Shown here one piece after another: positions 26,554 to 54,767 of a stretch of DNA of 64,000 nt. Positions within the stretch are counted from its first letter, which is position 1. Every line of letters begins with the position of its first letter. The DNA is from an uncultured Mycoplasmatota bacterium (GTDB lineage Bacteria > Bacillota_I > Bacilli_A > RF39 > UBA660): assembly GCA_946402735.1 (NCBI GenBank), contig CAMIXH010000002.1, forward strand, positions 29,080 to 93,079, written 5' to 3'. The notes under the pieces are model-generated. The model made no database searches and was not told where the DNA came from. It worked only from the letters and a program-made list of their open reading frames with translations. A program made the position numbers and the translations under genes.

Positions 26554-26629
<76 letters not shown>

Positions 26630-26641
26630 AAAAAAATAATA

Positions 26642-26718
26642 TGGTGGGCGATGAGAGACTCGAACTCCCGACCCCCTGCTTGTAAGGCAGATGCTCTAAC
26701 CAACTGAGCTAATCGCCC
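26642..26718 (-). tRNA. trnV: tRNA-Val (anticodon UAC), CCA encoded
   Basis: The reverse complement reads GGGCGATTAGCTCAGTTGGTTAGAGC. The anticodon loop is CTTACAA. Confidence 0.93.
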
Positions 26719-27256: not shown

Positions 27257-28621
27257 TTAAATAAACATTCCACCTTGAATTGGTGTGTCATCTACTGATG
27301 AAACATCATATCCTGGTATTTGACTTAAAGCATCAACTAATTCCTCTTGTTTCTCTGTTGGTGCTGGTGCTGGTTGATCAAATACTGGAGCTTCTAGTGA
27401 TGGTCCTGCTGGTGCTGCTGGAGTATCTAAAACAGGTGCTTCCATTGCAGGTTCTGCTGCTGGTGCCATCATTGGCTCTCCCATTGCAGGTGCCTCTAGA
27501 GTTGGTGTTTCTAATACTGGAGCTTCCATTGCTGGTAAAGCTTGAGTATTATTGAACACTTCTGATCTTTCCTCTATTTTTTCTCTAATAACATCAAGTG
27601 AATCACTAATGTTATTTAATCTATCTAATATTTCATCTAATCTTTCATCATTAATTTTATATTCCATCATACCGTTTACTGGTTGTGGTTCCTCCCCTTC
27701 ACTTGGTGCCTCTGGTGTTTCTTCTAAAGTACCTACTTCAGGAAGTATTGGTGCATCTGTAAAGTCTACTCCAGGTAAGCCTTCAATTGGTTCTTCAGTA
27801 GTTTCTACTTGTGCTTCAGGAGTATCTTCTGGTGTTTCTTCAACAGGAAGTTCTGTTTCAACAGGTGCTTCTGGTAACTCTGGCATTTCAGGGAATAATG
27901 TTTCTTCCTCTGTTGCTGGAGCTGCAGGTGCAGCTGGTTCTTCTGGAGTTGGTGTCTCAGGTACAACTGGTGTTTCTACTACTGGCTCTGCAGGTGTATC
28001 TACAAATAAATTATTATCAACAGTTGTTGGTGCCTCTGCTAATATTTGATCTGGCATTTCTGGCAAGTCAACTGGTGCTTCTGCTGGCGCTTCTTGTGTC
28101 TCCTCTTGAGGTCTTTCATCTACCAATGGTATATTTGGAATAATAGAATTAAAATCTACTCCTTCTAATTCAGTTGGAGGTACTACATCTACTGGTGCAT
28201 CAGTTAATATATCAGTTGGCATTGCAGGTTCTGCTGGAGCTTCAGTTACTGGTGCAGTTGGTTCTGCAACTGGCTCAGTTGGTGCAACTGGTACTTCTGG
28301 AACTGGTGTGTCCATTGCTGGTGCTGCTTCTACAGGAGCTGCAACTGGTGCAACAGGTTCTGCTGAAGTGCTAGGTGTTAAATCTAACTCTTCTGTTATT
28401 TCAGGTTCTGCTGGTGCTACAGGTGCTTCCATTGCTGGAGCAGTTTGAGTTTGTGTAGTTTCAATAGTAAAAGCACTTTGTTTTGAAAGTGGTACTTCTC
28501 CTTTTTCATCTGGAGATAAATTTGCTGATGAAACTCCTATTGCTTTATCAGCATTTACTTTTCTTACTACTTCTCCATTTAATATGTTTTCTACTTCACT
28601 TATCATTCTATTCCACCTCAA
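27257..28621 (-). CDS. Pro/Ala/Glu-rich, largely disordered protein with a short central helical segment
   Basis: 454-aa ORF with recurring APAMEAPV / PVAP / EAPV units and the central segment MEYKINDERLDEILDRLNNISDSLDVIREKIEE. It shares a 4-nt start/stop overlap with the upstream gene. Confidence 0.6.
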   Translation of the reverse strand: MRWNRMISEVENILNGEVVRKVNADKAIGVSSANLSPDEKGEVPLSKQSAFTIETTQTQTAPAMEAPVAPAEPEITEELDLTPSTSAEPVAPVAAPVEAAPAMDTPVPEVPVAPTEPVAEPTAPVTEAPAEPAMPTDILTDAPVDVVPPTELEGVDFNSIIPNIPLVDERPQEETQEAPAEAPVDLPEMPDQILAEAPTTVDNNLFVDTPAEPVVETPVVPETPTPEEPAAPAAPATEEETLFPEMPELPEAPVETELPVEETPEDTPEAQVETTEEPIEGLPGVDFTDAPILPEVGTLEETPEAPSEGEEPQPVNGMMEYKINDERLDEILDRLNNISDSLDVIREKIEERSEVFNNTQALPAMEAPVLETPTLEAPAMGEPMMAPAAEPAMEAPVLDTPAAPAGPSLEAPVFDQPAPAPTEKQEELVDALSQIPGYDVSSVDDTPIQGGMFI

Positions 28622-38173: not shown

Positions 38174-39807
38174 TTTTGTTCCCTCATTTTCTTAATCATT
38201 TCATGTTTCATATTTACGTATTCTGGTGTACCATCTACATAATATTCATGAGGATTAAGTGTTCTTTTAACTTCTGGATATAATGTTTTCATTTGACTCT
38301 CACAATAAGCTTTCTTTTCAAGTAATGTTGGATTTTCATATACTAACTTTCCATCTAAGAAGATTGGTTTTTGTAATCTCTTTAATTCAACATTATTAAG
38401 TGTTGTACTTTTAATGAAATCTTTTAAACTTACTATTTCAAGTTTTCTTCCATCAATATCTTTACCGCGGCTGCACATAACATCAGCAACTGCATATCCA
38501 GTTTCTTTATCATATGCTCTATATAAATCTTTGAAGTCTGGATTAACAATTTTAATTACATCTCCACTTACTTTGATCTTTGGAATAACTTGTCCATTTT
38601 CTATAACTGCTACTTCTTTATATACAGCCCCCATTCTTCCAGCTGGTTTAGAAATGTTATCTCCTACACCAAGTGAATCAAAGCATGCTCCTTGATTAAT
38701 TAAAGATTCAATTGTTTCAGCTGTAAGTCCATTACTTAAACAAATCTTAGCTTGTGGAAAACCAGCTTCATCTAACATCTTTCTTGCTTCTTTTGATAAG
38801 TAAGCTAAGTCTCCAGAGTCAATTCTGATTCCAATCTTATCTGTTCTAATACCATGTTCTTTCATATAGTTAAATACTTTAATAGCATTTGGAATTCCAA
38901 TTCTTAAAGTGTCATATGTATCAACTAGAAGTGTTGCATTGTCTGGATGATCTAGTGCAAATGTTAAGAATGCTTCATATTCACTATCGAATGTTTCTAC
39001 AAAGCTATGAGCCATTGTTCCAAGTGCTTTCATGTTATTCATCTTAGCTGCTAATACATTACTTGTTCCAGCACATCCAGCCATAATTCCATATATACTT
39101 GAATCAATTGCTGCTTCAGGTCCATCTGCTCTTCTTGCTCCAAATTCCATAACTGGTACATTCTTAGGTGTTGCTTCAATTATTCTTCTTGCTCCAGTTG
39201 CATGTTCCATAGCTCCATTTACAAATGATAGAAGAGCTGTTTCAACTATTTGTGCTTCTATTAAAGGTGCCTTAACAGTAATTAATGGTTCATTTGGGAA
39301 TACTGGAGTTCCATCAGGTATTGCATATATATCACCAGTAAACTTAAAGTTCTTTAAATAATCTAAGAATTCTTCACTGAAGTTATATCCAGCATTTTTA
39401 AAATACTCTATATCCCATTCATCAAATTTTAAATCTTTAATATATTCAATTACTTTATCTAAGCCAGCCATTACTGTGTATCCACCACCATTTGGAACAA
39501 CTCTATAAAATACATCGAATACACCTTCAACACCTTTTTTAGTTTTTACATATGTATCTGACATAAATAATTCATAAGCATCAGTCATTAATGTATAATC
39601 TCTAGCTATTCTATTTTTCTTTCTTAATGATTCAGCATGTATTTTTTCTAATCTAAGATTTTTTTCTAATTGTTCTACAGTTAACTTTTTATAAAAATTA
39701 TAAGTTCTTTCATAATTATCAAGTAACTCTTCGTAATAGTTTTCACCTTCTTCTGGTTTTCTATATCCTTTTAATTCAAATATTTGTTTAATTAATAAAT
39801 CTTTCAT
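38170..39807 (-). CDS. pncB: Nicotinate phosphoribosyltransferase with an N-terminal extension of about 65-70 aa
   Basis: The family core starts at YTLMTDAYELFM. Downstream are MEFGARRA and GTMAHSFV. The total is 545 aa. Confidence 0.87.
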   Translation of the reverse strand: MKDLLIKQIFELKGYRKPEEGENYYEELLDNYERTYNFYKKLTVEQLEKNLRLEKIHAESLRKKNRIARDYTLMTDAYELFMSDTYVKTKKGVEGVFDVFYRVVPNGGGYTVMAGLDKVIEYIKDLKFDEWDIEYFKNAGYNFSEEFLDYLKNFKFTGDIYAIPDGTPVFPNEPLITVKAPLIEAQIVETALLSFVNGAMEHATGARRIIEATPKNVPVMEFGARRADGPEAAIDSSIYGIMAGCAGTSNVLAAKMNNMKALGTMAHSFVETFDSEYEAFLTFALDHPDNATLLVDTYDTLRIGIPNAIKVFNYMKEHGIRTDKIGIRIDSGDLAYLSKEARKMLDEAGFPQAKICLSNGLTAETIESLINQGACFDSLGVGDNISKPAGRMGAVYKEVAVIENGQVIPKIKVSGDVIKIVNPDFKDLYRAYDKETGYAVADVMCSRGKDIDGRKLEIVSLKDFIKSTTLNNVELKRLQKPIFLDGKLVYENPTLLEKKAYCESQMKTLYPEVKRTLNPHEYYVDGTPEYVNMKHEMIKKMREQK

Positions 39808-39823
39808 TTTTTATTTTCCTTTC

Positions 39824-40393
39824 TTATCTAACTTCAATTCCTGCTTGACGCATTAATTTAAGTGCCATCTCGTTATATTCTTTGGCTTCATGAGTTGGAG
39901 CATCATATGTTTCAATTGCATCCTCATAAACCATAACTTTTACATCTCTATCATTTTGATCAAAGTAATTTGTTAGTGGTATTGCTAAATTCAATACACA
40001 TATATCAGTACAACAACCTGTTATAATTACTTCTCTTAATTTCTTCATTGCTTCTATATCTTTCATAAATCCAGGAGCAAACATTGTACTAGTTGAATTC
40101 TTTTCATATACAAGTCCATCTTTCTCATATGGTTTTAATTCATCAACCAACTCACTTTCTCTTGTTCCTTTAACACAATGTTCTGGAAATTTTTTAAATT
40201 CTAAACATCCAACCTCATGTGTATCTTTTATAAGTGCAACTCCTTCTTTTTCTTCTAAAGCTTTATCTACTAGAGTTTTTATTCTTGGAATAATGTGTTC
40301 AATATTTGAACTAGCCATTGCTCCCTCTCTAATAAATCCATTCACCATGTCTACTACTACAAGTAATTTTTCTAAATCTTCTTTTCTCTTCAT
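39824..40393 (-). CDS. pncA: Nicotinamidase (isochorismatase-family)
   Basis: Has LLVVVDMVNGF and the catalytic Cys in ITGCCTDICV. The start is set to the ATG at 40393, behind GAAAGGAG. The longer track ORF (to 40519) would read through the promoter. Confidence 0.85.
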   Translation of the reverse strand: MKRKEDLEKLLVVVDMVNGFIREGAMASSNIEHIIPRIKTLVDKALEEKEGVALIKDTHEVGCLEFKKFPEHCVKGTRESELVDELKPYEKDGLVYEKNSTSTMFAPGFMKDIEAMKKLREVIITGCCTDICVLNLAIPLTNYFDQNDRDVKVMVYEDAIETYDAPTHEAKEYNEMALKLMRQAGIEVR

Positions 40394-40409
40394 ATTAACT
40401 TTCTCCTTT

Positions 40410-40428
40410 CTTTTTAACATTTTGTTAA
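40410..40428 (-). promoter_or_regulatory. Operator-like box A in the 5' UTR of the NAD operon
   Basis: CTTTTTAACATTTTGTTAA is identical to box B over 19 nt. It contains the palindrome TTAACA-TTT-TGTTAA and lies between the predicted TSS and the RBS. Confidence 0.55.
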
Positions 40429-40475
40429 TAACAAAGATTATTTTTAAAGAGGTCTTTTCTCCTCTTGTTATTAAC

Positions 40476-40504
40476 ATTATATTAAAAACAGATTTGTTTG
40501 TCAA
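40476..40504 (-). promoter_or_regulatory. Consensus sigma-A promoter of the NAD operon
   Basis: The minus strand reads TTGACA (40504-40499), exactly 17 nt of spacer, then TATAAT (40481-40476). Confidence 0.8.
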
Positions 40505-40508
40505 TACT

Positions 40509-40531
40509 CTTTTTAACATTTTGTTAAAAAG
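40509..40531 (-). promoter_or_regulatory. Operator-like box B, a 23-bp palindrome abutting the -35
   Basis: CTTTTTAACA-TTT-TGTTAAAAAG has perfect 10-bp arms and lies 4 nt upstream of the -35 hexamer. Confidence 0.6.
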
Positions 40532-42988: not shown

Positions 42989-43018
42989 CAAAAAAAGAGA
43001 TGTTTTAAACATCTCTTA
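42989..43018 (-). terminator. Rho-independent terminator ending the T4SS-type operon
   Basis: The minus strand reads AAGAGATGTTT-A-AAACATCTCTT followed by TTTTT. The stem includes the coupling-protein stop codon. Confidence 0.8.
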
Positions 43019-45406
43019 TTCATCTTCACCACCGAAGAAATCATCAAAGAAATCTTCATTATTAGTATGATTATTAACAACAACACTATCAACATCAATA
43101 TTAACTTTTGGTTTTTCAACATCCTCATATGTAGGTTCTTGTTTTACTCCATCCATTGGATTAACTCTTACTGGTTCTTCATCTACTACTTCAACTACTG
43201 GTGCTGGTTTATTAATTTCAACATTTACTACAGGTTTTTCTTCTTCATGTAAACTTGGAACTATTTCTTCTAACTCTTCATCATCATCACTTGTAATATA
43301 TGTAGGTTTAGTCTCAGTTTTTTCAGTTGTATTAATATTGATATTTACTGTTGGTTCAGATTTATGATCAAGTATATCATTAATTTCTTTCTTGATATCT
43401 TTTTCATCTCTAATAGCAGTATTTTCAATTTCTTTTTCTTCTTTTTCTTTTGCTGCTAATTTTTCTCTTTCTTTTCTTTCCTCTTCTTCTTGTTCTTTTT
43501 CTAGTTTAGCAATTTGTTCATCAAGTTTCTTAACATAATCATCTAAACTAGTACTCATCATTGGTTGACTTCTCATTCCACCAGGAACATATCCTCCACT
43601 CATTGGCATACCCATCATATTAGGCATACCCATTCCTCCTGCCATACCTGGCATACCTGGCATTCCTGAAGGTTGTTCTCCTTTTAATTTAGTAACGAAT
43701 CCTTTTAAGTCAAATACTTTTATTTCACGACGTGGTCTAGTAGTATATCCCATATCTTCATATTTTTTACCCCAATCTATTTGCCAGTTTGGAGTTAATT
43801 TTGTTTTAAAAGGCATACTTCTAAATCTATTAAATATAACTTCATTTTGTTTTAAAGCTTGTAAATCACTAACTGTGAATAATGGTCTAATTGGTTGAGC
43901 TGGCTCATCCTTTTTAGGTTTATCTGGTTTTTTATCACCAAGTAATTTACTAATTTCTTCTAAGGCAGCTAACTCTGTAGACATGATATATACAAAGTTA
44001 CCACAGTTACCTTTAATTGTTTCTGCTACATCTTTTCCATAAACTTGATTTAATTGTGAAAAGTTTTGAATAGCAAATGTAAATCTTATATTTCTTGAAC
44101 GAGATGCTGTAATCATAGTACCAATATCATTAAGTGCTGGCATATTAGCAAACTCATCAAGAATAAAGTTTGTTCTATATGGAAGTTTTAATTTTGGACA
44201 AGTTTGTGCTACCGCAATTAAAGCTTCATAACATTGTTTTACGAATATTGTTGCAAGTGCATGATATGTAGTTTTTTCATCATGTACTTTTAAGAATACT
44301 GCTGTTTTTTCTTTACCAATATCCCTAATATCGAAATCACTATATGATAGCATCTCTGATAAGTTCTCTTGACTTGAGAAAATTCTTGTCTTTGTTCTAA
44401 ATGTAGACATGATACCACCACGTGTTTCATTAGGTGCATTAATACAAGATGCTGCAGCTATATATGCAGGAGATAATTCTCCTTTACTCTTAAAGTATTC
44501 TTTAATATAGTTAGATGAACCAAATCTATCTTCACCTACTTCAGCCATCATGTTAACGCTATTGATGTTTACTTCATCTTCAGTAGCATCATCAAATAGT
44601 CCTAATGATAAACCAGTAAAGAAGTTAGATGCTGTTTGTTCCCAGAATGGCTCAGCTTTATTATTTGGGTCTACCAAAATGTTTTTAGCAAGGTCTTGTA
44701 ATAACTCATTTGCTTTATCTACATTACCTTCTTTATATATTCTATATGGATAACTAAATGGGTTCCATGCACTTCCTTCATTAGGATCACGGAAGTTTAA
44801 TAGAATAATTTTATATCCTTTTTCTTGTAATAATTTTCCACAACCTTCATAAAGTTCACCTTTAGGGTCAGTAACGATAATACTTTCGCCATGACGAGCT
44901 AATATATTAACAAGTGGGAACATTAATTGTTGAGTTTTACCAGAACCAGAAGCACCCATAACTAATGCGTGTGGTTCTCCACTATCATCTACCCAAGCAT
45001 CAGTTCCATTATTTATAAATGGAAGACCACCTCCTGGATAATCTTCATCTTTTAAGTGAATCTTAACAATACCACGTTCTTTTTTCATTTCACGTTCACT
45101 TAATAGTTTACTATATCCATCATTTTTACTCTTTAATTCAGTTGTAAAACCAAATCCTTCTTCTCTTTCAAAGAAATATGATGAACAAGCAAGCATCAAA
45201 GCGATTAATGTTAAGAAGTAAAATACTAATGTATAGAAAATAAAGTCAGAACGAAAAGCAGGGCCTGGATTTAGTCCCCAAATTTCACCATCAACAGCAA
45301 AACTATGTAAGTTTAATACTGCGATTGCTACTAAATATAATAAGAAAATACAGAATATTACAAATATTACAACGTCTTTCTTTTCTGCCCTGAACTTTAA
45401 CTTCAT
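43016..45406 (-). CDS. virD4: Type IV coupling protein (VirD4/TraG family) with a long low-complexity C-terminal extension
   Basis: Has two N-terminal TMs, Walker A (MGASGSGKTQ), VTDPKGELY and Walker B (FILDEFANMP). The C-terminal ~200 aa contain GMPGMPGMAGGMGMPNMMGMPMSGG, a coiled coil and an acidic tail. Confidence 0.85.
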   Translation of the reverse strand: MKLKFRAEKKDVVIFVIFCIFLLYLVAIAVLNLHSFAVDGEIWGLNPGPAFRSDFIFYTLVFYFLTLIALMLACSSYFFEREEGFGFTTELKSKNDGYSKLLSEREMKKERGIVKIHLKDEDYPGGGLPFINNGTDAWVDDSGEPHALVMGASGSGKTQQLMFPLVNILARHGESIIVTDPKGELYEGCGKLLQEKGYKIILLNFRDPNEGSAWNPFSYPYRIYKEGNVDKANELLQDLAKNILVDPNNKAEPFWEQTASNFFTGLSLGLFDDATEDEVNINSVNMMAEVGEDRFGSSNYIKEYFKSKGELSPAYIAAASCINAPNETRGGIMSTFRTKTRIFSSQENLSEMLSYSDFDIRDIGKEKTAVFLKVHDEKTTYHALATIFVKQCYEALIAVAQTCPKLKLPYRTNFILDEFANMPALNDIGTMITASRSRNIRFTFAIQNFSQLNQVYGKDVAETIKGNCGNFVYIMSTELAALEEISKLLGDKKPDKPKKDEPAQPIRPLFTVSDLQALKQNEVIFNRFRSMPFKTKLTPNWQIDWGKKYEDMGYTTRPRREIKVFDLKGFVTKLKGEQPSGMPGMPGMAGGMGMPNMMGMPMSGGYVPGGMRSQPMMSTSLDDYVKKLDEQIAKLEKEQEEEERKEREKLAAKEKEEKEIENTAIRDEKDIKKEINDILDHKSEPTVNININTTEKTETKPTYITSDDDEELEEIVPSLHEEEKPVVNVEINKPAPVVEVVDEEPVRVNPMDGVKQEPTYEDVEKPKVNIDVDSVVVNNHTNNEDFFDDFFGGEDE

Positions 45407-45460
45407 CTATTTATTCACCCCGATACAAAAATATTATACACTATAAAATATTTTTTTTCA

Positions 45461-46267
45461 CTAATATTCTAAATTTTTGCTATTTAAAATTTGATATTTA
45501 AAGAATTTACCACTATTATTTATCTTAAACTGTATTTGTTTATGAGTGGTTTTACCATTTAATACCCCTTTTACTATATTAATAGCACTAGGAGCATTAC
45601 TATTTTTAATAGATATATTTAACTCATCTATAGCTTGTAATTCTTTAGGAGTATCAGTTATATAATATTCAAATAAATATAAATTAGTAGTTACTATTCC
45701 TTCTTTAACACTAATAGCATCTACCATAATTTTTATTTCATTGTTATAATCACGAGCTACATTTCCAAAGTTAAAACAATAATTATTACCCCTAGATTTA
45801 ACATATTCATAATAACCATCTAATAAATCAATATTTTCAGATATTTTAACTCCGTATAACTCTTCAAATGAATCTATAACATATTTACTTCTCATACAGA
45901 AATTACCTGTACTATAATCAATTGAACTTAAATACTTTTTATTATTTAATTCAAATGCAAATATATAATTCCATACCATTTGTTGTAAAGAAGCACCACT
46001 ATAAAACTTATAATTATAATTTGAAATTAATGCTTCTTTACCAAATAGATAATCTGTCTCTAATCTATCCTTGATTTCTGCATATGTTGGACTAGATTTA
46101 TCGCTCACATCTTTTTCACTAATATTTAAATTGTCATAATCTGGAAAATTAGTTTTATCTTCTTTATTACTACTTGCGCTAGCTAATATATATACTAGGA
46201 TTATAAATAATATAGCTACTCCGGCTACGATTAATCCGGCTTTTAATTTTGATTTATCTATCTCCAT
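45461..46267 (-). CDS. Membrane-anchored T4SS accessory protein (VirB8/TcpC-like by position and topology only)
   Basis: 268 aa with a single N-terminal TM and an extracytoplasmic globular part. It sits between the hydrolase and the coupling protein. No sequence motif was recognised. Confidence 0.35.
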   Translation of the reverse strand: MEIDKSKLKAGLIVAGVAILFIILVYILASASSNKEDKTNFPDYDNLNISEKDVSDKSSPTYAEIKDRLETDYLFGKEALISNYNYKFYSGASLQQMVWNYIFAFELNNKKYLSSIDYSTGNFCMRSKYVIDSFEELYGVKISENIDLLDGYYEYVKSRGNNYCFNFGNVARDYNNEIKIMVDAISVKEGIVTTNLYLFEYYITDTPKELQAIDELNISIKNSNAPSAINIVKGVLNGKTTHKQIQFKINNSGKFFKYQILNSKNLEY

Positions 46268-46276
46268 ATTGCCCTC

Positions 46277-49200
46277 CTAATACTTTAACTCAAATAGTTT
46301 TCCATCATATGTTCCAGAGTTTCCATTTCTTCCATAATTTCCACCCCAATTAAATCCAGCATCTTTGTATGCATATGCCCATAATATATAGTTAACGTTC
46401 TTACAATTTTCTTCACTTCCACCAAGTGCATTAACAAATTCTAAATATTCAGATAATTCACGAGTATTATATGGAGAATATTCTTTTCCATTAACCGTTA
46501 TTCTCTTAGAATAATTTATATCTTGAGCAATACCATATGCATGAGAATCAAATGTTCCACTAGCTGTTTTTTTCTCTATAAATACAGTACCATCCATAAT
46601 ATCATTCATAGTATATTTACAAGTTTGACCATTTGTAATTTTAACACCATTTGTTAACATCTTACATACACTCTTAAATGCTTTTTCAAAGTTTTTAACT
46701 GCATTTTTATGAACAGTATATTGTTTACTAGCAAATTCACTATTTCCTTCACATGTTGGACTAATAGTTACTAAATTAGCTGTTTTCCAATCAGGATTAA
46801 TAGTTATATGAGTAGCATCACTACCATCCTTATAACTAAATCCATAGAAGTTACCTCTATCTGGTGCTACATTAGGATATTCTGAAGTTGGTTTATTACC
46901 AGTTCTATCTTCATCTTCAGGAGTTTCTGGATCTGCTGGAGTACTATCTCCATCAGAACATCTAATTAATGTTGCTCCTTCATCTCCATATTCCTCTTGC
47001 ATTATTTGAGTAAATGACATACCTTGGTTAGCTTTATCTTCCCAACGATGTTGATATGTATCTACATAATGTGCACTAAATGGTGCACTGCCATCTATAA
47101 TTAAATAATCAGATGCTTTTTCATATAATGCTTGATATATAGGATATAAACTTTCATTTACTCCTTTATATGTTCCTCTTCCAGGATAGTAACTATGACA
47201 ACCTTGAAGTGTTGGAAGTGGTGTATTTAGTGAATAACAACCTCTCAAAATACCACAATAAACTTGATCACAGTTACCACTTCTCATTTTTATTGTACTA
47301 CCCTTTGTATAATTATTATTTCTTCTTAAAGCATAACTAATAGCTGCTACCATTTGAGATAATACATAATTATCATTATTTCTTTGAGCACCTATTTCTC
47401 CATAAGTTACACCCATTATATAATCTGCAAAAGTTGTTTTAAGCATAGGTGAACCTAAACAGTCTGTTAATTCAACTGTTATTTCATTTAAATTTGCTGT
47501 TAAATATTGTTGACAATTTGCTCCAGTTGGAACACCTGTATATCCACCTAATGTACTATCATAATCATCCCTTTCATCAGGGTCATCTCTATTTAAAGAA
47601 TGATTCATATTTGTTTTTCTTCCAACAATATCTTGTATTAATTGTTCTACTACTTTTGGAGTAAACACGTCATCATACGTAATATTTACTTTTCCATAGT
47701 AAACACCACCTGAATCCATAGATGGACCAAATGATGGGAAGTTTTGATATGCATATCCATTTCTATAATCAAAAGCTACTCCACCATATCCAGTAAAATA
47801 ATCTTTTGTTTTAGAATTAAGATCTGCTGCTTGATAGAATATTTCACTAGATGTAGCATCAGGTGTTTCTAATGCCTTTCTAGCTTTATTAACACTACCC
47901 ATATCAAGCTTATATGTAACATTAGATCCATATGATGAAGCAATAGCTTTTAATTGTTGATTTAACACTTCTTCAGTATAAGCATCATCAGCATTTTTAC
48001 ATTCATCAGAAGATGTTTCAAAGTTTTTATACTTTAATACTACTTCATCAAATTTATCAGCAGCATCTGCTCCAAATCTCATAAATACTTTCCACTTATC
48101 TAGATTATATTTATCAGATTCTGATTCTTTATATTCACATTTACCAGTAATACTTGTTACTTTATCATTTTCATCTTTAGTTACATCAACTACCCATTCA
48201 TAATAATATGATTTAGTAACAGCATGTGAATGCTTAATTAAATCATCAATACCTTTTCTAGTTATATGAGTATTTTTATCTTGTAAAACTTCACTTAAAC
48301 TAGAATAATGCTCTGTAGTTGGTGCTAAATTAGGTGCTTCATTTGGATTAATATATTGATCTACTGTCGGTCTTGTATCATATCCATAGAAAATTGTTGA
48401 GAATATCAATGCTTGATCTACATTGTTCTTCTTAGTTTCTTTTTCAATATATCTAATAAGTTCACAAGTTTCAGTTATTTTGTGTCCCCATAAACTATTC
48501 CACCCATCAGCTATACCAGTCCAGAAATTACCTTCACAACTCTTATTATTTTCTAAATAATTAATAAGATCTGTTCTATTCATTGGATTTCCATTTGCAT
48601 CATATTGATACTTTTCATCATCTACTAAACCTGGCATCTCACCTGTTTCTTCTTTAGTAGCTTCAGGCAAACCAAAGAAACTAACAAGTCCTAATGTTAG
48701 ATTATCAATTGCGGCCATTACTGCTATAACAATAAATGCAACAACAAATGCAGCTAACATTCCGCCAATAATTATGATATACCATTTATATTTCTTCCAT
48801 AGCTTTTTGCCAATTTTTAATCCGCCGCCACTATCTTTATCATCATCTTTATCTTTGTCAACGCCATCATCATCGTCTTTTTTGTCTTTTTCTTTTTTGT
48901 CATCAGAAGATTCACCATCTTTTTTCTCTTTATCACCAGATGATTTTTCTAGGCCATCACTATCACTTTTTTCTTTATCTTTGTCATCCTTACTTTCTAG
49001 ACCATCAGTATCTTTTTTCTTTTTTTCTCCAGTAATGTCATCAGCTTCTTGATCTTCTTCTTTTTGTTTCTTTTGTTTAGAACTAGTCTTTCCATAATCT
49101 TCATCAGTACCTCTTATTTCTTGATTCTTACCAGTTCTATCATTTATGCTTTTAATGTCATCAGTTTTATTATCGTTGCCCATGCTAAAACCACCGAATT

Positions 49201-49291
49201 CACCAAATCCGTTAAAAGAAACACTAACATTACTTTGACTAGCTTGATCTATATCTTGTTCAAGTGACTCATCATTATAATCGTCATTCAT
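46277..49291 (-). CDS. Large T4SS-associated cell-wall hydrolase: disordered charged N-tail, TM, SpoIID-like region, C-terminal LAS (M15-type) peptidase-like domain
   Basis: The D/K/E-rich region covers residues 1-165, followed by a TM (WYIIIIGGMLAAFVVAFIVIAVMAAI). The SpoIID-like patch reads MVAAISYALRR..GNCDQVYC. The LAS motifs are SHAYGIAQD and GFNWGGNY..DGKLFEL. Confidence 0.6.
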   Translation of the reverse strand: MNDDYNDESLEQDIDQASQSNVSVSFNGFGEFGGFSMGNDNKTDDIKSINDRTGKNQEIRGTDEDYGKTSSKQKKQKEEDQEADDITGEKKKKDTDGLESKDDKDKEKSDSDGLEKSSGDKEKKDGESSDDKKEKDKKDDDDGVDKDKDDDKDSGGGLKIGKKLWKKYKWYIIIIGGMLAAFVVAFIVIAVMAAIDNLTLGLVSFFGLPEATKEETGEMPGLVDDEKYQYDANGNPMNRTDLINYLENNKSCEGNFWTGIADGWNSLWGHKITETCELIRYIEKETKKNNVDQALIFSTIFYGYDTRPTVDQYINPNEAPNLAPTTEHYSSLSEVLQDKNTHITRKGIDDLIKHSHAVTKSYYYEWVVDVTKDENDKVTSITGKCEYKESESDKYNLDKWKVFMRFGADAADKFDEVVLKYKNFETSSDECKNADDAYTEEVLNQQLKAIASSYGSNVTYKLDMGSVNKARKALETPDATSSEIFYQAADLNSKTKDYFTGYGGVAFDYRNGYAYQNFPSFGPSMDSGGVYYGKVNITYDDVFTPKVVEQLIQDIVGRKTNMNHSLNRDDPDERDDYDSTLGGYTGVPTGANCQQYLTANLNEITVELTDCLGSPMLKTTFADYIMGVTYGEIGAQRNNDNYVLSQMVAAISYALRRNNNYTKGSTIKMRSGNCDQVYCGILRGCYSLNTPLPTLQGCHSYYPGRGTYKGVNESLYPIYQALYEKASDYLIIDGSAPFSAHYVDTYQHRWEDKANQGMSFTQIMQEEYGDEGATLIRCSDGDSTPADPETPEDEDRTGNKPTSEYPNVAPDRGNFYGFSYKDGSDATHITINPDWKTANLVTISPTCEGNSEFASKQYTVHKNAVKNFEKAFKSVCKMLTNGVKITNGQTCKYTMNDIMDGTVFIEKKTASGTFDSHAYGIAQDINYSKRITVNGKEYSPYNTRELSEYLEFVNALGGSEENCKNVNYILWAYAYKDAGFNWGGNYGRNGNSGTYDGKLFELKY

Positions 49292-49325
49292 AATTAACTC
49301 CTTTTAAGAAAAAAAGAGGATTTTA

Positions 49326-51116
49326 TTAGAATCCTCCTCCTGATCCAAATGATTCTAACTCTTGTTGAGTTGCTATTACATTAATACGCATTCTTCTGTT
49401 TCCACATACAAATAATGCTTGTCCTTGAGAATATCTCTTTATAGAATCTCTTTCTTGATCATTTAAGTCTATTAATTTTGATAAATCATCAACAGCTTGT
49501 TTCTTAAGTCCCATAACTAAATAATATGAAGCATTATCAAATATAGCTTTACCATGAACAAGTACGTTAGGAGCAGCAAAGTCTGTTGGTTGTTGTGTAA
49601 TAACAATAGTACCTGTATTATACTTACGACTACGTCTTTGGATACGTGCTAAGAATTCAGCACCTAATGTATTTTGATCAGCAAGAAGCATATGTGCTTC
49701 ATCAACCATTAATATAGTATTTACTTCTCTATCTAATGTAAGTCCCCATGCAAACTTTAATATGTTGAAGAATAATGCATTTCTGATATTACTATCTGCA
49801 TTCATAACTTCACGAATATTAAATACTATAAAGTCTGCATCTGTATCAATAGTAGTTTTACCTGTGAAATAATATCTTAGCTCATTTACTAATGGTCTAA
49901 TCTTTATTTCAAGTCTTTCCATGATATCTCTTTCATGAGTATGCTCAGTCATAGCAAATAATTTACCTTTGATTGTAGCATATACATCATCAAATGTTGG
50001 ATAATCATGTGCGAATATCTTAGTAAAATCAGTATTGAAATCTATTTTATATCTCTTATATGTTTCTTGAACCATTTCACTGAATAGTGTTAAAACATCT
50101 TCTTCAATGTCAGGACTATAGTACTTCATGAATGCTTTTAATGTTTGAAGAGTACGAGTAAGTACAGCATATCCCATACCTTCTGTCATTTCTTCTTCAT
50201 CAGCATCAAGTACTACTTCTAATGGGTTTATCATACCAAAGTCGCCACCACGACCTAAGTCGATAAAATCTCCACCATATAATCTAGTCATTTCTTCAAG
50301 CTCACCTTCAGGGTCTATTGCTACGATCTTATGACCATTTCTAATATTACTTCTTAAAAGAACTTTAGCAGCTGTAGATTTACCACTACCAGAAGTACCT
50401 AAGATAATCATATTAGCATTATTTCTATTAAATTCTTTCTTAGTTTGATATAAGAATTGGTTAAATAAGATAACACCACCAGAGTAATCAACACCAAGTA
50501 AACATGCAAGTCCTGGATCCTTAATACTATCGAATACAAATGGATACATAGCAGCCATTGTAACTGATGGTATTGGTGTACCTATTCTATCTTCTATATC
50601 ATTCTTTTCAAATATAGGAAGCATACTTTCTATAATTTTTCTTTGTTCAAATCTTAAAACTAATCCCTTCATTCCCATAGCATCTAAATAGTTCTTAACT
50701 TGAACTTTTTTATTTTCTAATTCTTCATGAGAATCAGCACTTAATAATAAATGCATTTGGAAATCGAAGATTCTAGCTTGTGTTGCAGCTAGCATTTCAA
50801 TAAAACTTTCAATACTTTCATAATCTTGACGATATCTTTCTTGAATAGTTCTATCTCTTTCATCTTGATATCTAGCTTTTAAATCAGCAATCTCTGAGTT
50901 TAACATTTTTGATAAAACGCTAAATGAGATTGGAATATGTTTAATACATACTTTAATTCCAGATAATTGTGTAATATTTGCAAGATAACCTTCACTAATA
51001 GATTTAGGATAACTAACTATTGTTAAAACACAACAGTATTTATCACTAATAATCATTTCTGAAGATTTAAATTCTAATCCCTTTGGGGCTAATTGACTCT
51101 TAAAACTTACGCTCAT
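49326..51116 (-). CDS. virB4: VirB4-family T4SS ATPase, C-terminal (ATPase) portion
   Basis: Has Walker A (ILGTSGSGKST) and Walker B (LMVDEAHML). The N-terminal LEFKSSEMIISDKYCCVLTIVSYP resembles the mid-region of full-length Gram-positive VirB4s. Confidence 0.85.
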   Translation of the reverse strand: MSVSFKSQLAPKGLEFKSSEMIISDKYCCVLTIVSYPKSISEGYLANITQLSGIKVCIKHIPISFSVLSKMLNSEIADLKARYQDERDRTIQERYRQDYESIESFIEMLAATQARIFDFQMHLLLSADSHEELENKKVQVKNYLDAMGMKGLVLRFEQRKIIESMLPIFEKNDIEDRIGTPIPSVTMAAMYPFVFDSIKDPGLACLLGVDYSGGVILFNQFLYQTKKEFNRNNANMIILGTSGSGKSTAAKVLLRSNIRNGHKIVAIDPEGELEEMTRLYGGDFIDLGRGGDFGMINPLEVVLDADEEEMTEGMGYAVLTRTLQTLKAFMKYYSPDIEEDVLTLFSEMVQETYKRYKIDFNTDFTKIFAHDYPTFDDVYATIKGKLFAMTEHTHERDIMERLEIKIRPLVNELRYYFTGKTTIDTDADFIVFNIREVMNADSNIRNALFFNILKFAWGLTLDREVNTILMVDEAHMLLADQNTLGAEFLARIQRRSRKYNTGTIVITQQPTDFAAPNVLVHGKAIFDNASYYLVMGLKKQAVDDLSKLIDLNDQERDSIKRYSQGQALFVCGNRRMRINVIATQQELESFGSGGGF

Positions 51117-51700
51117 ATACTACTCATCACCGTCCCAAAATTAATAGTGTCTCCACCATTCATAAATCCATCTAATAATGTTCTTAAATCATCATTACTT
51201 ACTTGTGTTGATTGTAGTCCAGCTAAAGCAAGTCCTGATACCATATTTTGTATTCTCTTTTGAATAACTTCAGGTCTTCTTTCTTTAAATAGTAAGAAGT
51301 ATTCAGTATCAGTTACATTAACTTCTTTACTCATAAATAAATTAGCTTTTTCTATATCTTCTCTAACTAATTTTCTCATAGCTTGAGATTGTACAGAATT
51401 ATAAAGTAATTTTAATTGAGCAAGATATACATTAATATCAACTGGTCTATCAGATACAATTAACCAGAAAGGATAATCTATAGTATTATAGAAATTTCTT
51501 AAATTAAAGATGGCATTACTTTGACTATCATAGTCTAAGATAAAGATGTTTCTAGGTTTAACTTTAACACCTGTTACTCTATATCCATTATCTAAAAATA
51601 TTTCACCATTTTGAATACCCTTTATAGGTAACCAATCTTCTGCAAATTTTCTTGTAGAATTACTTTTTGATTTGTTCGCTTCCGTATTCAATTCTAGCAC
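51113..51700 (-). CDS. VirB4 N-terminal domain encoded as a separate ORF
   Basis: AEDWLPIKGIQNGEIFLDNGYRVTGVKVKPRNIF resembles the N-termini of Tn916-Orf16 / PrgJ-type VirB4 proteins (from memory). It has an ATGA stop/start overlap with the ATPase ORF. 195 + 596 aa comes to about the length of a full VirB4. The start codon is GTG. Confidence 0.6.
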   Translation of the reverse strand: MLELNTEANKSKSNSTRKFAEDWLPIKGIQNGEIFLDNGYRVTGVKVKPRNIFILDYDSQSNAIFNLRNFYNTIDYPFWLIVSDRPVDINVYLAQLKLLYNSVQSQAMRKLVREDIEKANLFMSKEVNVTDTEYFLLFKERRPEVIQKRIQNMVSGLALAGLQSTQVSNDDLRTLLDGFMNGGDTINFGTVMSSI

Positions 51701-51986
51701 ACCATCCTCTCCAACAATACTGTTTAGGCTCTAATATAAATATTATAGCCTCCTCTATAAATACCAGAACATTGTGGTAATAAGGTATAGGCACAACCAA
51801 TAATACACACAATGTTAATGGTAATAACTTTAATACAAGAGTCATAAAACCTTCACCAGGCACTATAAACATCATCATCAATGTTACAAACCCACCACCA
51901 ATAAGAACAGCCAAGTCTATTGGTCTAAATACACCAAACATTAACTGACCTTTTTTACTATTGGCGGGTATTAAATAATTATTCAT
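51660..51986 (-). CDS. PrgI / VirB3-like small membrane protein
   Basis: 108 aa with an IP..SKKGQLMFG..RPIDL N-terminus and two TM segments. It sits immediately upstream of VirB4, as in Gram-positive T4SS loci. Confidence 0.55.
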   Translation of the reverse strand: MNNYLIPANSKKGQLMFGVFRPIDLAVLIGGGFVTLMMMFIVPGEGFMTLVLKLLPLTLCVLLVVPIPYYHNVLVFIEEAIIFILEPKQYCWRGWCARIEYGSEQIKK

Positions 51987-52026
51987 ACTCTTTTTTCCTT
52001 TCTATTAATTTAATATCAATTTTAAA

Positions 52027-54192
52027 CTATTTATTCTTTGGATTTCCTCCATGAGTTCTTTGATAACTTGGCTTATTTTGTATAGCAGCTTTTTCTTCGT
52101 GGATTCTTCTCTTCTCATCTGTTCTGTTCTTACCACTAGCGTCTCTTCCACCAGCATCAAGATAACTTTGACGTTTACTTCTAACATCGGCGCTATGATC
52201 ACCTTCAAATCCTTTTCTAGCATCATAGTAATCTTTAGCACGTTTTTCTGCATTATGACGAGCCACTTCTGCAGCAGTTTTAGCATCTGCAATACTCTTC
52301 TCTTGTGCTGCAAGTCTTTCTTCAGCTTCTATCTTTCTTTGTTGCATTTCTTCAAGAAGTTGTTGACCAGCAATTCTATCTTCATCAGTTGTTGCTGAAT
52401 CTAATTGTTCTTGTGCTTCAGCAACTCTTCTATCTGCATCAGATATATTACTTCTATATGAACTTAAATCTGTTGTACTAATACTATCGTATGCAGCTTG
52501 AGCTTGTTGATATGCTTTGTCATAATCAAGCATTTTAGCAGCATAAGCATCTTTATCTTCTCCAAGTTTAACATCACTATATCCACCTGAATATGTATCT
52601 CTAAAGTAGTCTGCAGCATGATCAGCATCGTAACCCTCTTGACTTGCACCCCAAGTTTGATCGAATTGTGATGTTAAATGTCCGTCGTTATCAACAGTTC
52701 CCATCTTAGAATCTTTAACTGCGAATTTTTCTGCTGAATCTAATGCATCTAAAGCCGCACTTTGTCTATCAAGTTTAGCAATCTTTCTATCTTGTGCATT
52801 TCCTACACCAGCAGCGCTTTGTACATTTCCAATTCCAGTTTGTATTAAGCCACCTCTAGCAGCAATATTTTGTCCTTTTGCTTTTGTATCTTTACCAACT
52901 TGTCCTTGTCCTTTGAAGAAATCTGCAACATTCTTTCCTTTTGCTCCAGATCTAGCACCACCAGTTATACCTGATCCAATACCAGCTATAGCTCCGCCAA
53001 TGCCACCTCCGGCAAATCCACCGACTGCACCAACAAGTCCACCAATAGTGCCACCTGCAACTCCTCCAACAAGTCCTTTAAGGAATGGCATGAAGTCACG
53101 CTTTTTAGTTTCTATTTCTAAATGTAATATTTCATTTATAAAGCTTGGAATATCTCCAGCAAATTTAAATGCAGCAATAATAATTAATATTATCATTAAT
53201 GCTACTGTATACCACTCATCAGAGTTAATTGCTGGGAAGTAATCTGTTATATTTCTAATAAATTTAACTACAAAATTACAAACAAGAAGCATACTAAACA
53301 TACGTATAAATACTTCTACATATACAGCACTATACTTCTTTACAAAAGCTGAGAATGTTTTACCTTTAATACCCTCACCAATAATAGTGATTATTGCTAT
53401 TGGGGCTACTACTTGCAAGATTAATAACTTAAATGCACGAACTCCAACTTGAATAGTCGTTTTTATAAATGCGTAAATCATATAACATGCCGCAGCAAAA
53501 CCAACTACATAGAAGTAGTCAAACTTCTTACCAATATCACCTGCTATTTGAGGTAGATTTCTAAATTCTATATGACCATTATCATTTAATGCTTGTTTTA
53601 AAGGTTCTTGATTCTGTGGATCTTTAGCATCTGTTATGAATGTTGAACATACCGAAAACGCAATATATTCACCAATATCTGGCATTTCTTCAGCAGTACC
53701 AAAAACAATTCTATTAATAAGACCAGAATCTTTTCCACCTGTTATATCTGCTATTTGCCCCAAAACAACAAAATTATAGTTATCTGGAGTACCTATAATT
53801 AACATACTAAGTTCATTAAATAATGTAAAAATTGTATTATAACTTAACAGTAATGCCGCAGTTATAAATATATTAATAAGTATTTCTTTACCTTTTTTAC
53901 TAGCTTCTTCTGGATTTAACATAAAGTTAATCAAAGAAATACCTAATTTATACACAACAAAAACCATAACTAGAGCTTCAATTCTAGTTAGGATACCTGA
54001 AATAAGTCCATATAAACTATTAAAGTTTAGTGTACACATCAATTGGAATAACTTATATGAATATGCTAGTAGCATATAAGCAAGACCATCAAAGAATAGT
54101 AATGCTTTATAGAAAATCTCTGTAATCCAATCGACAAAGCCACCTATATTTATCAAATCAGTGAAAAAACCTATAATTGTAAGTATATTCAT
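52027..54192 (-). CDS. VirB6-like polytopic T4SS membrane protein with a Gly-rich segment and a long hydrophilic coiled-coil C-terminus
   Basis: Has about 8 TM segments in the first ~400 aa, then GGVAGGTIGGLVGAVGGFAGGGIGGAIAGIGSGITGG, then a ~260-aa Ala/Glu/Lys/Asp-rich tail. The start is moved to the ATG at 54192, behind GGGAG (7-nt spacing). Confidence 0.6.
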   Translation of the reverse strand: MNILTIIGFFTDLINIGGFVDWITEIFYKALLFFDGLAYMLLAYSYKLFQLMCTLNFNSLYGLISGILTRIEALVMVFVVYKLGISLINFMLNPEEASKKGKEILINIFITAALLLSYNTIFTLFNELSMLIIGTPDNYNFVVLGQIADITGGKDSGLINRIVFGTAEEMPDIGEYIAFSVCSTFITDAKDPQNQEPLKQALNDNGHIEFRNLPQIAGDIGKKFDYFYVVGFAAACYMIYAFIKTTIQVGVRAFKLLILQVVAPIAIITIIGEGIKGKTFSAFVKKYSAVYVEVFIRMFSMLLVCNFVVKFIRNITDYFPAINSDEWYTVALMIILIIIAAFKFAGDIPSFINEILHLEIETKKRDFMPFLKGLVGGVAGGTIGGLVGAVGGFAGGGIGGAIAGIGSGITGGARSGAKGKNVADFFKGQGQVGKDTKAKGQNIAARGGLIQTGIGNVQSAAGVGNAQDRKIAKLDRQSAALDALDSAEKFAVKDSKMGTVDNDGHLTSQFDQTWGASQEGYDADHAADYFRDTYSGGYSDVKLGEDKDAYAAKMLDYDKAYQQAQAAYDSISTTDLSSYRSNISDADRRVAEAQEQLDSATTDEDRIAGQQLLEEMQQRKIEAEERLAAQEKSIADAKTAAEVARHNAEKRAKDYYDARKGFEGDHSADVRSKRQSYLDAGGRDASGKNRTDEKRRIHEEKAAIQNKPSYQRTHGGNPKNK

Positions 54193-54220
54193 ATGTACAC
54201 TCCCTATTCCTATCATAAGA

Positions 54221-54262
54221 ATTATAACATAAATATTTTTTAAAATAAAGTATTTATGTTAT
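54221..54262 (-). promoter_or_regulatory. Extended -10 promoter overlapped by a perfect 12-bp inverted repeat, upstream of the T4SS-type operon
   Basis: The arms are ATAACATAAATA (54224-54235) and TATTTATGTTAT (54251-54262). On the minus strand TGTTATAAT (54229-54221) lies within one arm. Confidence 0.5.
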
Positions 54263-54516
54263 TCAAAATATTCATTTATTTCAACTTTATGTTCTAAAAA
54301 TAATTTGTTAATAACATAGTTAAATTCTTCCTCATCATCAATAGGAGAATACTTTGTTATTCCCCCTTCAAAATTAACCTTAACTATTGAAACGTCATTT
54401 TCAAATTCATCATTATTTATTAGATAAAGATATGTATTATCTTTATGTTTTAATACATCTATTACTAAATAATCCCCATTGTTAAATTTAATAACATTAT
54501 TCTTTTTTATATTCAT
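54259..54516 (-). CDS. Small hypothetical protein (DUF1292-like pattern)
   Basis: 85 aa. The SPIDDEEEFNYVINKL segment resembles the DUF1292 C-terminal motif. Weak assignment. Confidence 0.45.
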   Translation of the reverse strand: MNIKKNNVIKFNNGDYLVIDVLKHKDNTYLYLINNDEFENDVSIVKVNFEGGITKYSPIDDEEEFNYVINKLFLEHKVEINEYFE

Positions 54517-54518
54517 TT

Positions 54519-54767
54519 TTATAACCCCATAACATTATCTTTTTCATAATCACTAACATATTCACTAGCTGCATCAATTGTTTCACCAATTGAATCTTTT
54601 AAGAATCCTCTTGAATACATTAAAGAAACTAATACAACATTAGCATAATCAGTCTTTTCATCTCTAATAGCACCCTCACTTACAAATAAATGAGTACCTC
54701 TTGTATTAGGATTATATCTTGTTAATTCACTAATATTTTCAGCATCTACAATAGGTTTTATTTTCAT
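54519..54767 (-). CDS. Small hypothetical protein
   Basis: 82-aa ORF with an AGGTGAAGAGG RBS. No motif recognised. Confidence 0.5.
   Translation of the reverse strand: MKIKPIVDAENISELTRYNPNTRGTHLFVSEGAIRDEKTDYANVVLVSLMYSRGFLKDSIGETIDAASEYVSDYEKDNVMGL

Follow-up and report, generated by a model that had tools for sequence, protein, structure and literature searches.

The stretch of DNA analysed here (the window) comprises 64,000 nucleotides (nt) from an uncultured Mycoplasmatota bacterium (assembly GCA_946402735.1, contig CAMIXH010000002.1). At positions 43016-54216 its minus strand carries seven tightly packed, co-directional open reading frames (ORFs), which together constitute a full Gram-positive (MPF_FATA) type IV secretion system (T4SS). 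An earlier note, made from the sequence alone, had recognised the seven ORFs and quoted ATPase motifs for two of their products, VirB4 and VirD4; ORFs and motifs are all present where it placed them. The gene order, recG-yebC-(DUF1292)-VirB6-VirB3-TrsD-VirB4-hydrolase-p268-VirD4-TVP38-rmuC, recurs in relatives. The window has a GC content of about 25-26%, and its long ORFs are intact under translation table 11, the standard bacterial code.

The operon is bracketed by its own signals, as the earlier note had proposed. An extended -10 promoter element, TGTTATAAT, lies at 54221-54229 on the minus strand, in a position that is conserved in relatives. A generic promoter scan returned promoter-like sites no more often than expected by chance in this AT-rich window, and a conservation test was used instead: in about 20 of 25 close species the motif TGnTATAAT stands 20-50 nt upstream of the first-gene orthologue, whereas 9% of random 190-nt windows contain it. 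Since the annotated start of the first gene, ATG 54216, falls only 4 nt after the -10 element, the true start is probably ATG 54192, which has AGGGAG 7 nt upstream. At the other end, an intrinsic terminator (42995-43017, minus strand; 10-bp stem, 3-nt loop, T-run) closes the operon; beyond it, at 42984-42956, TVP38 as the next gene has a strong promoter-like site of its own. The earlier note had judged the base composition to match that of the flanks. This is close to the truth, though not exact: the GC content at third codon positions (GC3) averages 0.16 in the T4SS genes (0.12-0.15; p108 0.28) against 0.10 +/- 0.03 in the 37 other genes of the window. The raised GC3 is the sole possible trace of a foreign origin, and a faint one; it may also be a difference in codon usage.

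VirB4 is encoded by two coupled ORFs, as had been noted. The upstream one (51113-51700, minus strand) encodes a TrsD-like N-terminal domain of 195 amino acids (aa), which matches positions 92-276 of the NCBIfam model NF045975 (VirB4_plasma; E 2.6e-12) and is homologous to the 227-aa protein preceding VirB4 in the Bacillus thuringiensis plasmid pBMB67. The downstream one (49326-51116, minus strand) encodes the 596-aa, TrsE-like C-terminal motor part of the ATPase (VirB4-C), which matches PDB entry 4ag5 (E 4.4e-62), NF045975 (E 2.8e-107) and NF045971 (E 7e-51), as well as the Pfam families P-loop_TraG and AAA_10. Its Walker A (GTSGSGKS) and Walker B (ILMVDE) motifs are intact. Weak similarity to the Ced ATPases is also seen (NCBIfam; CedD 5e-11, CedB 0.004), as expected for any VirB4/HerA-type ATPase. 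The two ORFs overlap by ATGA in different frames, an arrangement that points to translational coupling. Because the split is kept in 79 of 79 related loci, it is judged to be genuine architecture. Two other origins were considered and rejected. An artefact of genetic code 4 (UGA read as Trp) is out, since the ORFs lie in different frames, overlap by ATGA and are intact under table 11; a frameshift or pseudogene is out, since all 79 loci conserve the split with varied junction sequences.

The last gene of the operon (43016-45406, minus strand) encodes a VirD4-type coupling protein, and the earlier assignment as a coupling ATPase holds: it scores 296.8 bits against NF045973 (conju_CD1115), for which the cut-off is 250. 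Pfam matches to T4SS-DNA_transf (5.4e-53), TrwB_AAD_bind (4.6e-26) and TraG-D_C (1.5e-22) agree with this assignment. The protein has two N-terminal transmembrane (TM) segments, a Walker A motif (GASGSGKT), a Walker B motif (FILDE), the further motifs DPKGE and FILDEFAN, and a long C-terminal tail that is Gly/Met/Pro-rich and acidic. VirD4 was found in 56 of 81 loci within +/-10 kb. In 40 related loci (designated here by L and a number; for example L003, L016 and L027) a rhodanese-domain gene of 71-95 aa, which the window does not have, stands after VirD4 and before TVP38.

The first gene of the operon (52027-54216, minus strand) encodes p729, a VirB6/TrbL-like polytopic protein. Its assignment in the earlier note is in keeping with at least six TM segments in residues 70-356, after which come a linker rich in Gly and a C-terminal half that is charged and coiled, and with its position, which is that of TrbL in pBMB67. 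Similarity searches gave less: two NCBIfam matches below their cut-offs (ICE_Mbov_0396_TM, 2.8e-7; MMCAP2_0566 conjugal transfer protein, 1.5e-6), Pfam TrbL_4 in only 2 of 28 orthologues at 3e-8 and in the L161 orthologue at 34.4 bits against a cut-off of 27, and an hhalign comparison of the p729 family with pBMB67 TrbL at E 0.027 and a probability of 1.8%. An orthologue is present in 75 of 81 loci. The second gene (51660-51986, minus strand) encodes p108, a small VirB3/PrgI/TcpE-like protein with two TM segments. The PrgI/VirB3 assignment is supported by hhalign, which aligns the p108 family with the PrgI-family protein of pBMB67 over 92 columns (probability 74.8%, E 2.6e-5); a few orthologues have weak Pfam matches to TcpE (4/26) or PrgI (3/26), and p108 is present in 78 of 81 loci.

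The gene after VirB4 (46277-49291, minus strand) encodes p1004, a cell-wall hydrolase in the VirB1 slot. Its acidic N-terminus is disordered and is followed by a single TM segment (172-190); the ectodomain is large, conserved and Cys-rich and includes a SpoIID-like segment, and an M15-type peptidase forms the C-terminus. The earlier note had called it a dual wall hydrolase. This description stands for its orthologues and same-slot proteins, which exceed the thresholds of M15_4, SpoIID (32 bits), CHAP, VanY or NlpC/P60; the window protein itself remains below threshold (SpoIID, E 0.004; Peptidase_M15_4, E 2e-4). Among the 57 homologues listed, 18 have a precomputed PF13539 match and one a PF08486 match. 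An AlphaFold2 (AF2) model of 805 residues reaches a pLDDT (predicted local distance difference test) of 82; Foldseek matches of the whole model to the PDB all have E >0.7, and the p1004 profile finds a single weak match in the PDB, a spore cortex-lytic enzyme. On account of the families matched by the orthologues and same-slot proteins, the VirB1 slot is read as a predicted glycan-cleaving module joined to an exchangeable peptidase. At one related locus (L077:11908-14515) a DHHW/AlgX-like SGNH protein and an MBOAT O-acyltransferase occupy the slot after VirB4 in place of the usual hydrolase. Such pairs typically O-acylate cell-surface polymers. Between VirB4 and VirD4 in relatives, Pfam detected no toxin or immunity cargo, only wall enzymes and the MBOAT/DHHW pair.

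Between the hydrolase and VirD4 lies the gene for p268 (45461-46267, minus strand), a bitopic protein whose single TM segment, already recognised in the earlier note, spans residues 10-28. Its AF2 model, built on a 27-sequence alignment, has a pLDDT of 88.9 and a pTM (predicted template modelling score) of 0.79. Foldseek comparison of this model with the PDB gave weak matches (best E 7e-3; target-normalised TM-score 0.3-0.4), almost all to NTF2-like folds: ketosteroid isomerase, limonene epoxide hydrolase, SnoaL and designed NTF2 proteins. NTF2-like is the fold class of VirB8, TcpC and PrgL. The predicted fold makes p268 a candidate VirB8/TcpC/PrgL-class component; no VirB8, TcpC or PrgL entry stands among the top 50 Foldseek matches. 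The same search returned no HUH or Rep_trans match, the two folds for which the earlier note had suggested checking this protein.

That suggestion concerned a hidden relaxase, and it bears on which mobility genes accompany the module. No relaxase, integrase or other recombinase, replication protein or partition protein occurs in the 64-kb window, as the earlier note had stated; this result comes from reading translated ORFs, down to a length of 110 aa in 1-40500 and of 70-80 aa from there to the end of the window, with Pfam applied to the uncharacterised ones and the others recognised as housekeeping by reading. Transposase and DDE genes are likewise missing from the window; flanking direct repeats and oriT were not searched for with dedicated tools. 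Inside the seven-gene operon there is no conserved extra gene of unknown function to serve as a relaxase. Two candidates for a cryptic relaxase were rejected: p268, because its predicted fold is NTF2-like without similarity to a relaxase fold, and the two small ORFs at 54259-54767, because they encode only 82-85 aa, one being a DUF1292 protein and the other conserved in only 9 loci.

Relatives of the module were compared with pBMB67, the nearest annotated plasmid relative, in a set of 232 sequences (the window and 231 loci of the lineage, taken with up to 10 kb on either side; 3.67 Mb). As a positive control, homologues of the pBMB67 VirD4, TrsD-like, VirB4, SAF and CpaF proteins were detected in 80-120 of these sequences. 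The MobP3 relaxase of the plasmid, the only relaxase family searched for across the related loci, has no match in the same set. Judged by its gene content, the module is not a self-transmissible element, and relaxase, recombinase and mobility appear to have been lost.

The module is widespread, and it stays in one place. In a scan of one genome per species, relatives of VirB4-C occur in at least 549 species-level genomes; at 90% identity there are at least 7200 clusters. The best 80 of the species-level relatives are 73-93% identical to the window protein and all derive from metagenome-assembled genomes of uncultured gut Bacilli or 'Tenericutes'; the hosts sampled include human, ruminant, rabbit, mouse and chicken. 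To assess the site of insertion, species were chosen independently of the presence of a T4SS, by an rmuC at least 77% identical to that of the window and enough upstream sequence. All 33 of the 33 close species obtained in this way carry the module directly upstream of rmuC, at the same site. Comparison of synteny, which the earlier note had recommended, shows that the order recG-yebC-[T4SS]-TVP38-rmuC is kept. The position of recG-yebC varies in a few loci: the pair lies upstream of the T4SS in the clade of the window (window positions 54826-57644) and downstream of VirD4 in L041, L048 and L060. Several contigs syntenic with the locus (L027, L041, L057, L060, L063, L066, L149 and others) are labelled 'uncultured Muribaculaceae', 'Bacteroides helcogenes', 'Bacteroidaceae' or 'Clostridium sp.', evident errors of taxonomy or binning.

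Divergence of the module follows that of its flanks. In their identity to the window, VirB4 and rmuC correlate with a Pearson coefficient of 0.92 (n=70), and VirB4 and recG with one of 0.91 (n=28). Against the nearest genome, the synonymous divergence (dS) is 0.5-0.8 in module and flanks alike. The ratio of nonsynonymous to synonymous divergence (dN/dS), another check proposed in the earlier note, ranges from 0.04 to 0.38 over the seven genes (VirB4-C 0.04, p108 0.09, TrsD-like 0.11, VirD4 0.14, p268 0.27, p729 0.37, hydrolase 0.38), against 0.09 for recG, 0.05 for yebC and 0.09 for rmuC; these values are approximate, as a dS of 0.5-0.8 in DNA of 25% GC is near saturation. VirB4-C thus has the lowest ratio in the region, and the three surface-exposed proteins are the fastest evolving (0.27-0.38). 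On these estimates, purifying selection acts on the module at least as strongly as on neighbouring housekeeping genes.

No close copy was found on a plasmid. The earlier note had named near-identical copies on ordinary integrative and conjugative elements (ICEs) or plasmids as a sign of recent acquisition; such copies were looked for, and the closest plasmid VirB4 found is 29.6% identical. In a library of representatives at 50% identity the whole lineage forms one cluster, the next ones being 44% and 41% identical (both short contigs) and the remainder at most 34%; the named representatives among these belong to Thomasclavelia/Coprobacillus, Solobacterium, Erysipelotrichaceae and a Mycoplasmatota plasmid. 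A syntenic module is carried by 'Clostridium sp. CAG:1000' (VirB4 85%, rmuC 83% identical), and the GTDB family CAG-1000 belongs to the order RF39 (PMC8035907). The lineage carrying the module is therefore probably order RF39, in or near family CAG-1000, an assignment based on synteny and the GTDB family name, not on phylogeny. The fixed site in 33 of 33 close species, the occurrence in at least 549 species, the co-divergence with the flanks, the equal dS and the dN/dS of 0.04-0.38 together lend strong support, from comparative sequence data, to the view that the module is chromosomal, domesticated, lineage-wide and vertically inherited. The earlier note had offered a domesticated chromosomal T4SS with a non-conjugative role as one of its readings; the chromosomal half of that reading is upheld by these data.

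In less closely related species, additional genes stand upstream of the VirB6-like gene in place of recG-yebC. These include arrays of 1-7 VirB2-like genes per locus, encoding a two-TM, Cys-flanked pilin domain; among the small array members, 13 of 21 match Pfam T4SS_pilin (PF18895) and two match CagC. Further upstream lies a Tad-like cluster, in which a SAF/RcpC-like protein and a CpaF-like ATPase are encoded together with two proteins of the TadB/C kind, a small pilin-like protein, and one protein each resembling TadE and TadZ. The composite locus of T4SS, pilins and Tad-like genes spans about 20 kb and is found in most of the wider lineage (L027-L080 and L161-L240; for example L027:491-7120 and L161:2509-9750). 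The Tad ATPase has relatives in at least 514 species-level genomes.

One part of this kind was found in the 64 kb of the window. A gene at 21600-23435 (minus strand), 20 kb from the operon and flanked by genes for an ABC transporter and a Cna_B surface protein, encodes a 611-aa protein in which a VirB2-like pilin domain (about residues 1-105) is fused to a wall-enzyme-like ectodomain. The pilin domain was detected with a hidden Markov model derived from the arrays (E 1.9e-19), by Pfam T4SS_pilin (E 0.006) and by tblastn, which pairs it with genes of the pilin arrays at 50 loci. Residues 195-476 are similar to the L060 protein in the VirB1 slot, and the C-terminus is weakly GDSL/SGNH-like (E 0.005). 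From these similarities the fusion protein probably belongs with the T4SS, either as an accessory component or as cargo.

Other loci of the window may be described briefly. A sortase, a signal peptidase and a pilin-like surface protein are encoded at 17546-19691 (minus strand), and a large surface protein with Cna_B/SpaA domains at 23475-25532 (minus strand); because of these loci, the organism is taken to have a cell wall and sortase-anchored surface structures. A dense cluster for NAD salvage and uptake occupies 31447-40519. Pfam identifies an NrtR-like Nudix regulator in it, and NadR, PnuC, NadD, NadE, PncB and PncA were recognised by reading the translations; the cluster is consistent with a scavenging, reduced-genome lifestyle. 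Twelve tRNA genes are grouped at 25646-26718 (minus strand), and no rRNA genes were detected in the window. Together with a 454-aa, Pro/Ala/Glu-rich low-complexity protein encoded at 27257-28621 (minus strand; 41% GC), the tRNA genes explain a GC peak at 25-29 kb.

Several known systems resemble the module in part. Its likeness to plasmids of the pBMB67 and pGO1-pIP501 kind lies in the order TrbL(VirB6)-PrgI(VirB3)-TrsD-like-VirB4, in a CD1115-family VirD4 and in a VirB4 split in two. The full order in pBMB67 is MobP3 relaxase-VirD4-x-TrbL-PrgI-(TrsD-like)-VirB4 with a SAF/CpaB-AAA-CpaF-TadB/C-like cluster, homologues of which occur in the wider lineage. Unlike the module, which is fixed between housekeeping genes and whose VirB4 is about 30% identical, pBMB67, which is typed as conjugative, has its MobP3 relaxase beside VirD4 and carries genes for replication and partition. 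Mycoplasma ICEs (MICE; with Mbov_0397/CDS17 as VirB4 and CDS5 as VirD4) supply the top curated VirB4 family, NF045975 (2.8e-107), and membrane families that p729 matches weakly; their hosts are related (Bacilli/Mollicutes), and they have no recognised relaxase. They differ in that the window protein scores 359.6 bits against an equivalog cut-off of 590, and in that VirB4 is a single long protein in MICE and split here. MICE also encode a DDE recombinase (CDS22), are mobile and variably present, and live in wall-less hosts, whereas wall hydrolases are integral to the module described here. With the 89K T4SS of Streptococcus suis ('type IVC') the module shares a minimal set of VirB1, B3, B4, B6, B8 and D4, of which B6 and B8 are candidates here, and a proposed non-conjugative (effector) role (PMC12857230); 89K is a transferable island of particular strains and not a lineage-wide core locus.

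A further comparison is with the epibiotic Patescibacteria, for which Wang et al. (Cell, 2023) reportedly described the T4SS of Southlakia epibionticum. The T4SSs of this group are chromosomal, relaxase-less and MPF_FATA-derived, with an adjacent TrsD and pilin arrays, and the T4SS is essential for the epibiotic growth of S. epibionticum (Quinonero-Coronel et al. 2025, PMC12102498; PMC12857230). TrsD is a protein of its own both in Patescibacteria and in the pGO1 subclass (PMC12102498). The present module shares with these systems its MPF_FATA derivation, its chromosomal, lineage-wide and vertical character, the lack of a nearby relaxase and the TrsD-like gene next to virB4. Both also have VirB3/PrgI and wall hydrolases, with a VirB6-like candidate here; divergent VirB2-like pilin arrays (PF18895) occur in many loci, here those of more distant relatives, and small-genome uncultured hosts and, in some loci, recG are shared as well. 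There are also differences. The hosts here are Bacilli, and the closest named VirB4 proteins, 30-34% identical, are those of Erysipelotrichales and of a Mycoplasmatota plasmid; the window protein seems unlikely to belong to the VirB4 clade of Patescibacteria. Loci of the Candidate Phyla Radiation (CPR) fetched through rmuC contain no T4SS. VirD4 lies in the operon here, whereas in Patescibacteria the type IV coupling protein (T4CP) is mostly unlinked and is non-essential in Southlakia. Finally, Tad-like filament genes and a candidate VirB8-class NTF2-like protein are found here, and type IV pilus genes there.

We propose that the T4SS is a machine for export into other bacteria on contact and that it serves a lifestyle dependent on a partner, much as the essential T4SS does in the epibiotic Patescibacteria; we give the proposal roughly an even chance. 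Its ancestor would be a conjugative module like those of pBMB67 and pGO1, in which the genes run TrbL-PrgI-TrsD-VirB4 ... VirD4, often alongside a Tad-like pilus. Transcription would start at the operon's own extended -10 promoter. The SpoIID-like/M15 hydrolase would open the wall of the producer and possibly that of the partner, and the VirB6-like and VirB3-like proteins, TrsD/VirB4 and the NTF2-like VirB8-class protein would build the channel through membrane and wall. VirD4 would recruit a cytoplasmic macromolecule, either protein or DNA, and feed it outward into the contacted cell; the direction is read as export because the conserved, operonic VirD4 exceeds its family cut-off. Contact and reach would come, for the majority of the wider lineage, from the VirB2-like pilin arrays and the Tad-like pilus encoded alongside. 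The fast-evolving exposed parts and the divergent pilin arrays fit an interaction with variable partner surfaces.

A number of points weigh against this proposal. The non-conjugative half of the domestication reading is our inference, and the export function is a putative one. An operonic VirD4 of the conjugative family CD1115 suits DNA transfer at least as well as protein export, and the unlinked, non-essential T4CP of Southlakia makes the analogy with Patescibacteria imperfect. Two features of the neighbourhood hint towards DNA: recG and rmuC flank the module, and recG adjoins the T4SS in two different arrangements. The clade of the window has neither a pilin array nor Tad genes adjacent to the operon, and its assemblies contribute none of the best 80 matches to the Tad ATPase. 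The 64 kb of this genome to which the relaxase search extended, the single relaxase family covered across related loci, the near-saturated dS behind the selection estimates and the placement in RF39 by synteny and family name count on the same side.

The first alternative is a chromosomal machine for conjugation or DNA donation, which would transfer DNA within the lineage with a relaxase that is encoded elsewhere or has escaped recognition. It would resemble the ICE-driven chromosomal transfer of mycoplasmas or the DNA secretion of the Neisseria gonococcal genetic island (GGI). The earlier note had offered a similar reading, with a relaxase elsewhere or an unrecognised small one. We regard this as possible, if on the unlikely side. 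In its favour, VirD4 exceeds the cut-off of a conjugative T4CP family (NF045973) and also matches the TrwB DNA-binding domain and TraG-D_C, and the top NCBIfam model for VirB4, NF045975, is the family of mycoplasma ICE ATPases. Mycoplasma ICEs are likewise not known to have a relaxase. The flanking recG and rmuC, and the second order in which recG-yebC adjoins the module in L041, L048 and L060, agree with a role in DNA transfer. T4SS loci of the Patescibacteria class ABY1 likewise include recG, radA and comF (PMC12102498), which adds to the case. Against it stand the lack of a relaxase in the window by Pfam and of MobP3 in 3.67 Mb of related loci, and the operon offers no conserved extra gene that could fill the role, p268 being NTF2-like and the small ORFs encoding 82-85 aa, one of them DUF1292. 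The fast surface parts and divergent pilins also suggest heterologous rather than conspecific targets, which is a weak argument.

Secretion of protein to the milieu or to the animal host, and not to other bacteria, in the manner of the S. suis 89K T4SS that releases the protease SspA-1, is improbable. The lineage is gut-associated (human, ruminant, rabbit, mouse and chicken), and S. suis provides a precedent for a Gram-positive T4SS as an effector translocator (PMC12857230). The operon, however, contains no candidate effector, and wall-degrading modules, together with the pilin arrays and Tad pilus of relatives, suit contact with walled cells better. The S. suis system, moreover, sits on a mobile pathogenicity island.

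A T4SS for DNA uptake (competence), comparable to Helicobacter ComB or the archaeal Ced system and providing DNA for nucleotides or recombination, is less probable still. The adjoining recG and rmuC and the weak similarity to Ced ATPases (CedD 5e-11, CedB 0.004) could be explained in this way, and a small-genome lineage could gain from nucleotide scavenging. ComB, however, works without VirD4, whereas VirD4 here is operonic and conserved (dN/dS 0.14), and the essentiality of the Southlakia T4SS is independent of ComEC-dependent transformation (PMC12857230).

The remaining reading, a decaying ICE remnant or a recent plasmid or ICE fragment without function, which would account for the missing relaxase and integrase and for a GC3 of 0.16 against 0.10 in neighbours, is refuted in its decaying form by the fixed site, co-divergence and selection data and retains almost no probability overall: the ORFs are intact with dN/dS of 0.04-0.38, the site is the same in 33 of 33 close species, at least 549 species have relatives, divergence of the module keeps pace with that of its flanks, the coupled VirB4 split persists in 79 of 79 loci, the best plasmid copy is 29.6% identical, and the syntenic housekeeping flanks exclude an assembly or binning artefact of one mobile element.

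A contact-dependent export machine, our preferred reading, can be extended to the lineage as a whole. RF39-type Bacilli may have domesticated a conjugation machine independently, so that T4SS, VirB2-like pilins and Tad-like pilus would form a core organelle for attaching to, and exchanging macromolecules with, gut bacteria, the carriers being obligate or facultative episymbionts. We put this forward tentatively and think it rather doubtful.

Almost every Gram-positive T4SS studied to date is a conjugation machine carried by a mobile element. A 2025 review treats the non-conjugative roles of Gram-positive T4SSs as a long-standing question, with S. suis 89K and the Patescibacteria as the only exceptions it names (PMC12857230). 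Our literature search found no paper linking RF39 with a T4SS. The machine itself is of a known kind; what we found no prior description of is a lineage-wide, vertical, relaxase-less T4SS in gut Firmicutes outside the CPR, with an operonic VirD4 and with relatives that have pilins and Tad genes. It represents a third and very large exception, a relaxase-less T4SS fixed in hundreds of species of a cultivation-resistant gut lineage, with a VirB4 conserved more tightly than recG or rmuC. Should the T4SS serve DNA transfer, gut Firmicutes would have a chromosomal 'mating' system that extends through a whole lineage. Should its carriers be episymbionts, theirs would be the first T4SS-dependent lifestyle outside the Patescibacteria. 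If contact-dependent export is its function, the need for a partner could explain why these bacteria are difficult to grow alone, the module would be a marker locus for finding their partners, and the lineage would offer a second, independent natural experiment on the domestication of a conjugation machine. A fixed, relaxase-less T4SS suggests that these gut Bacilli depend on contact with other cells.

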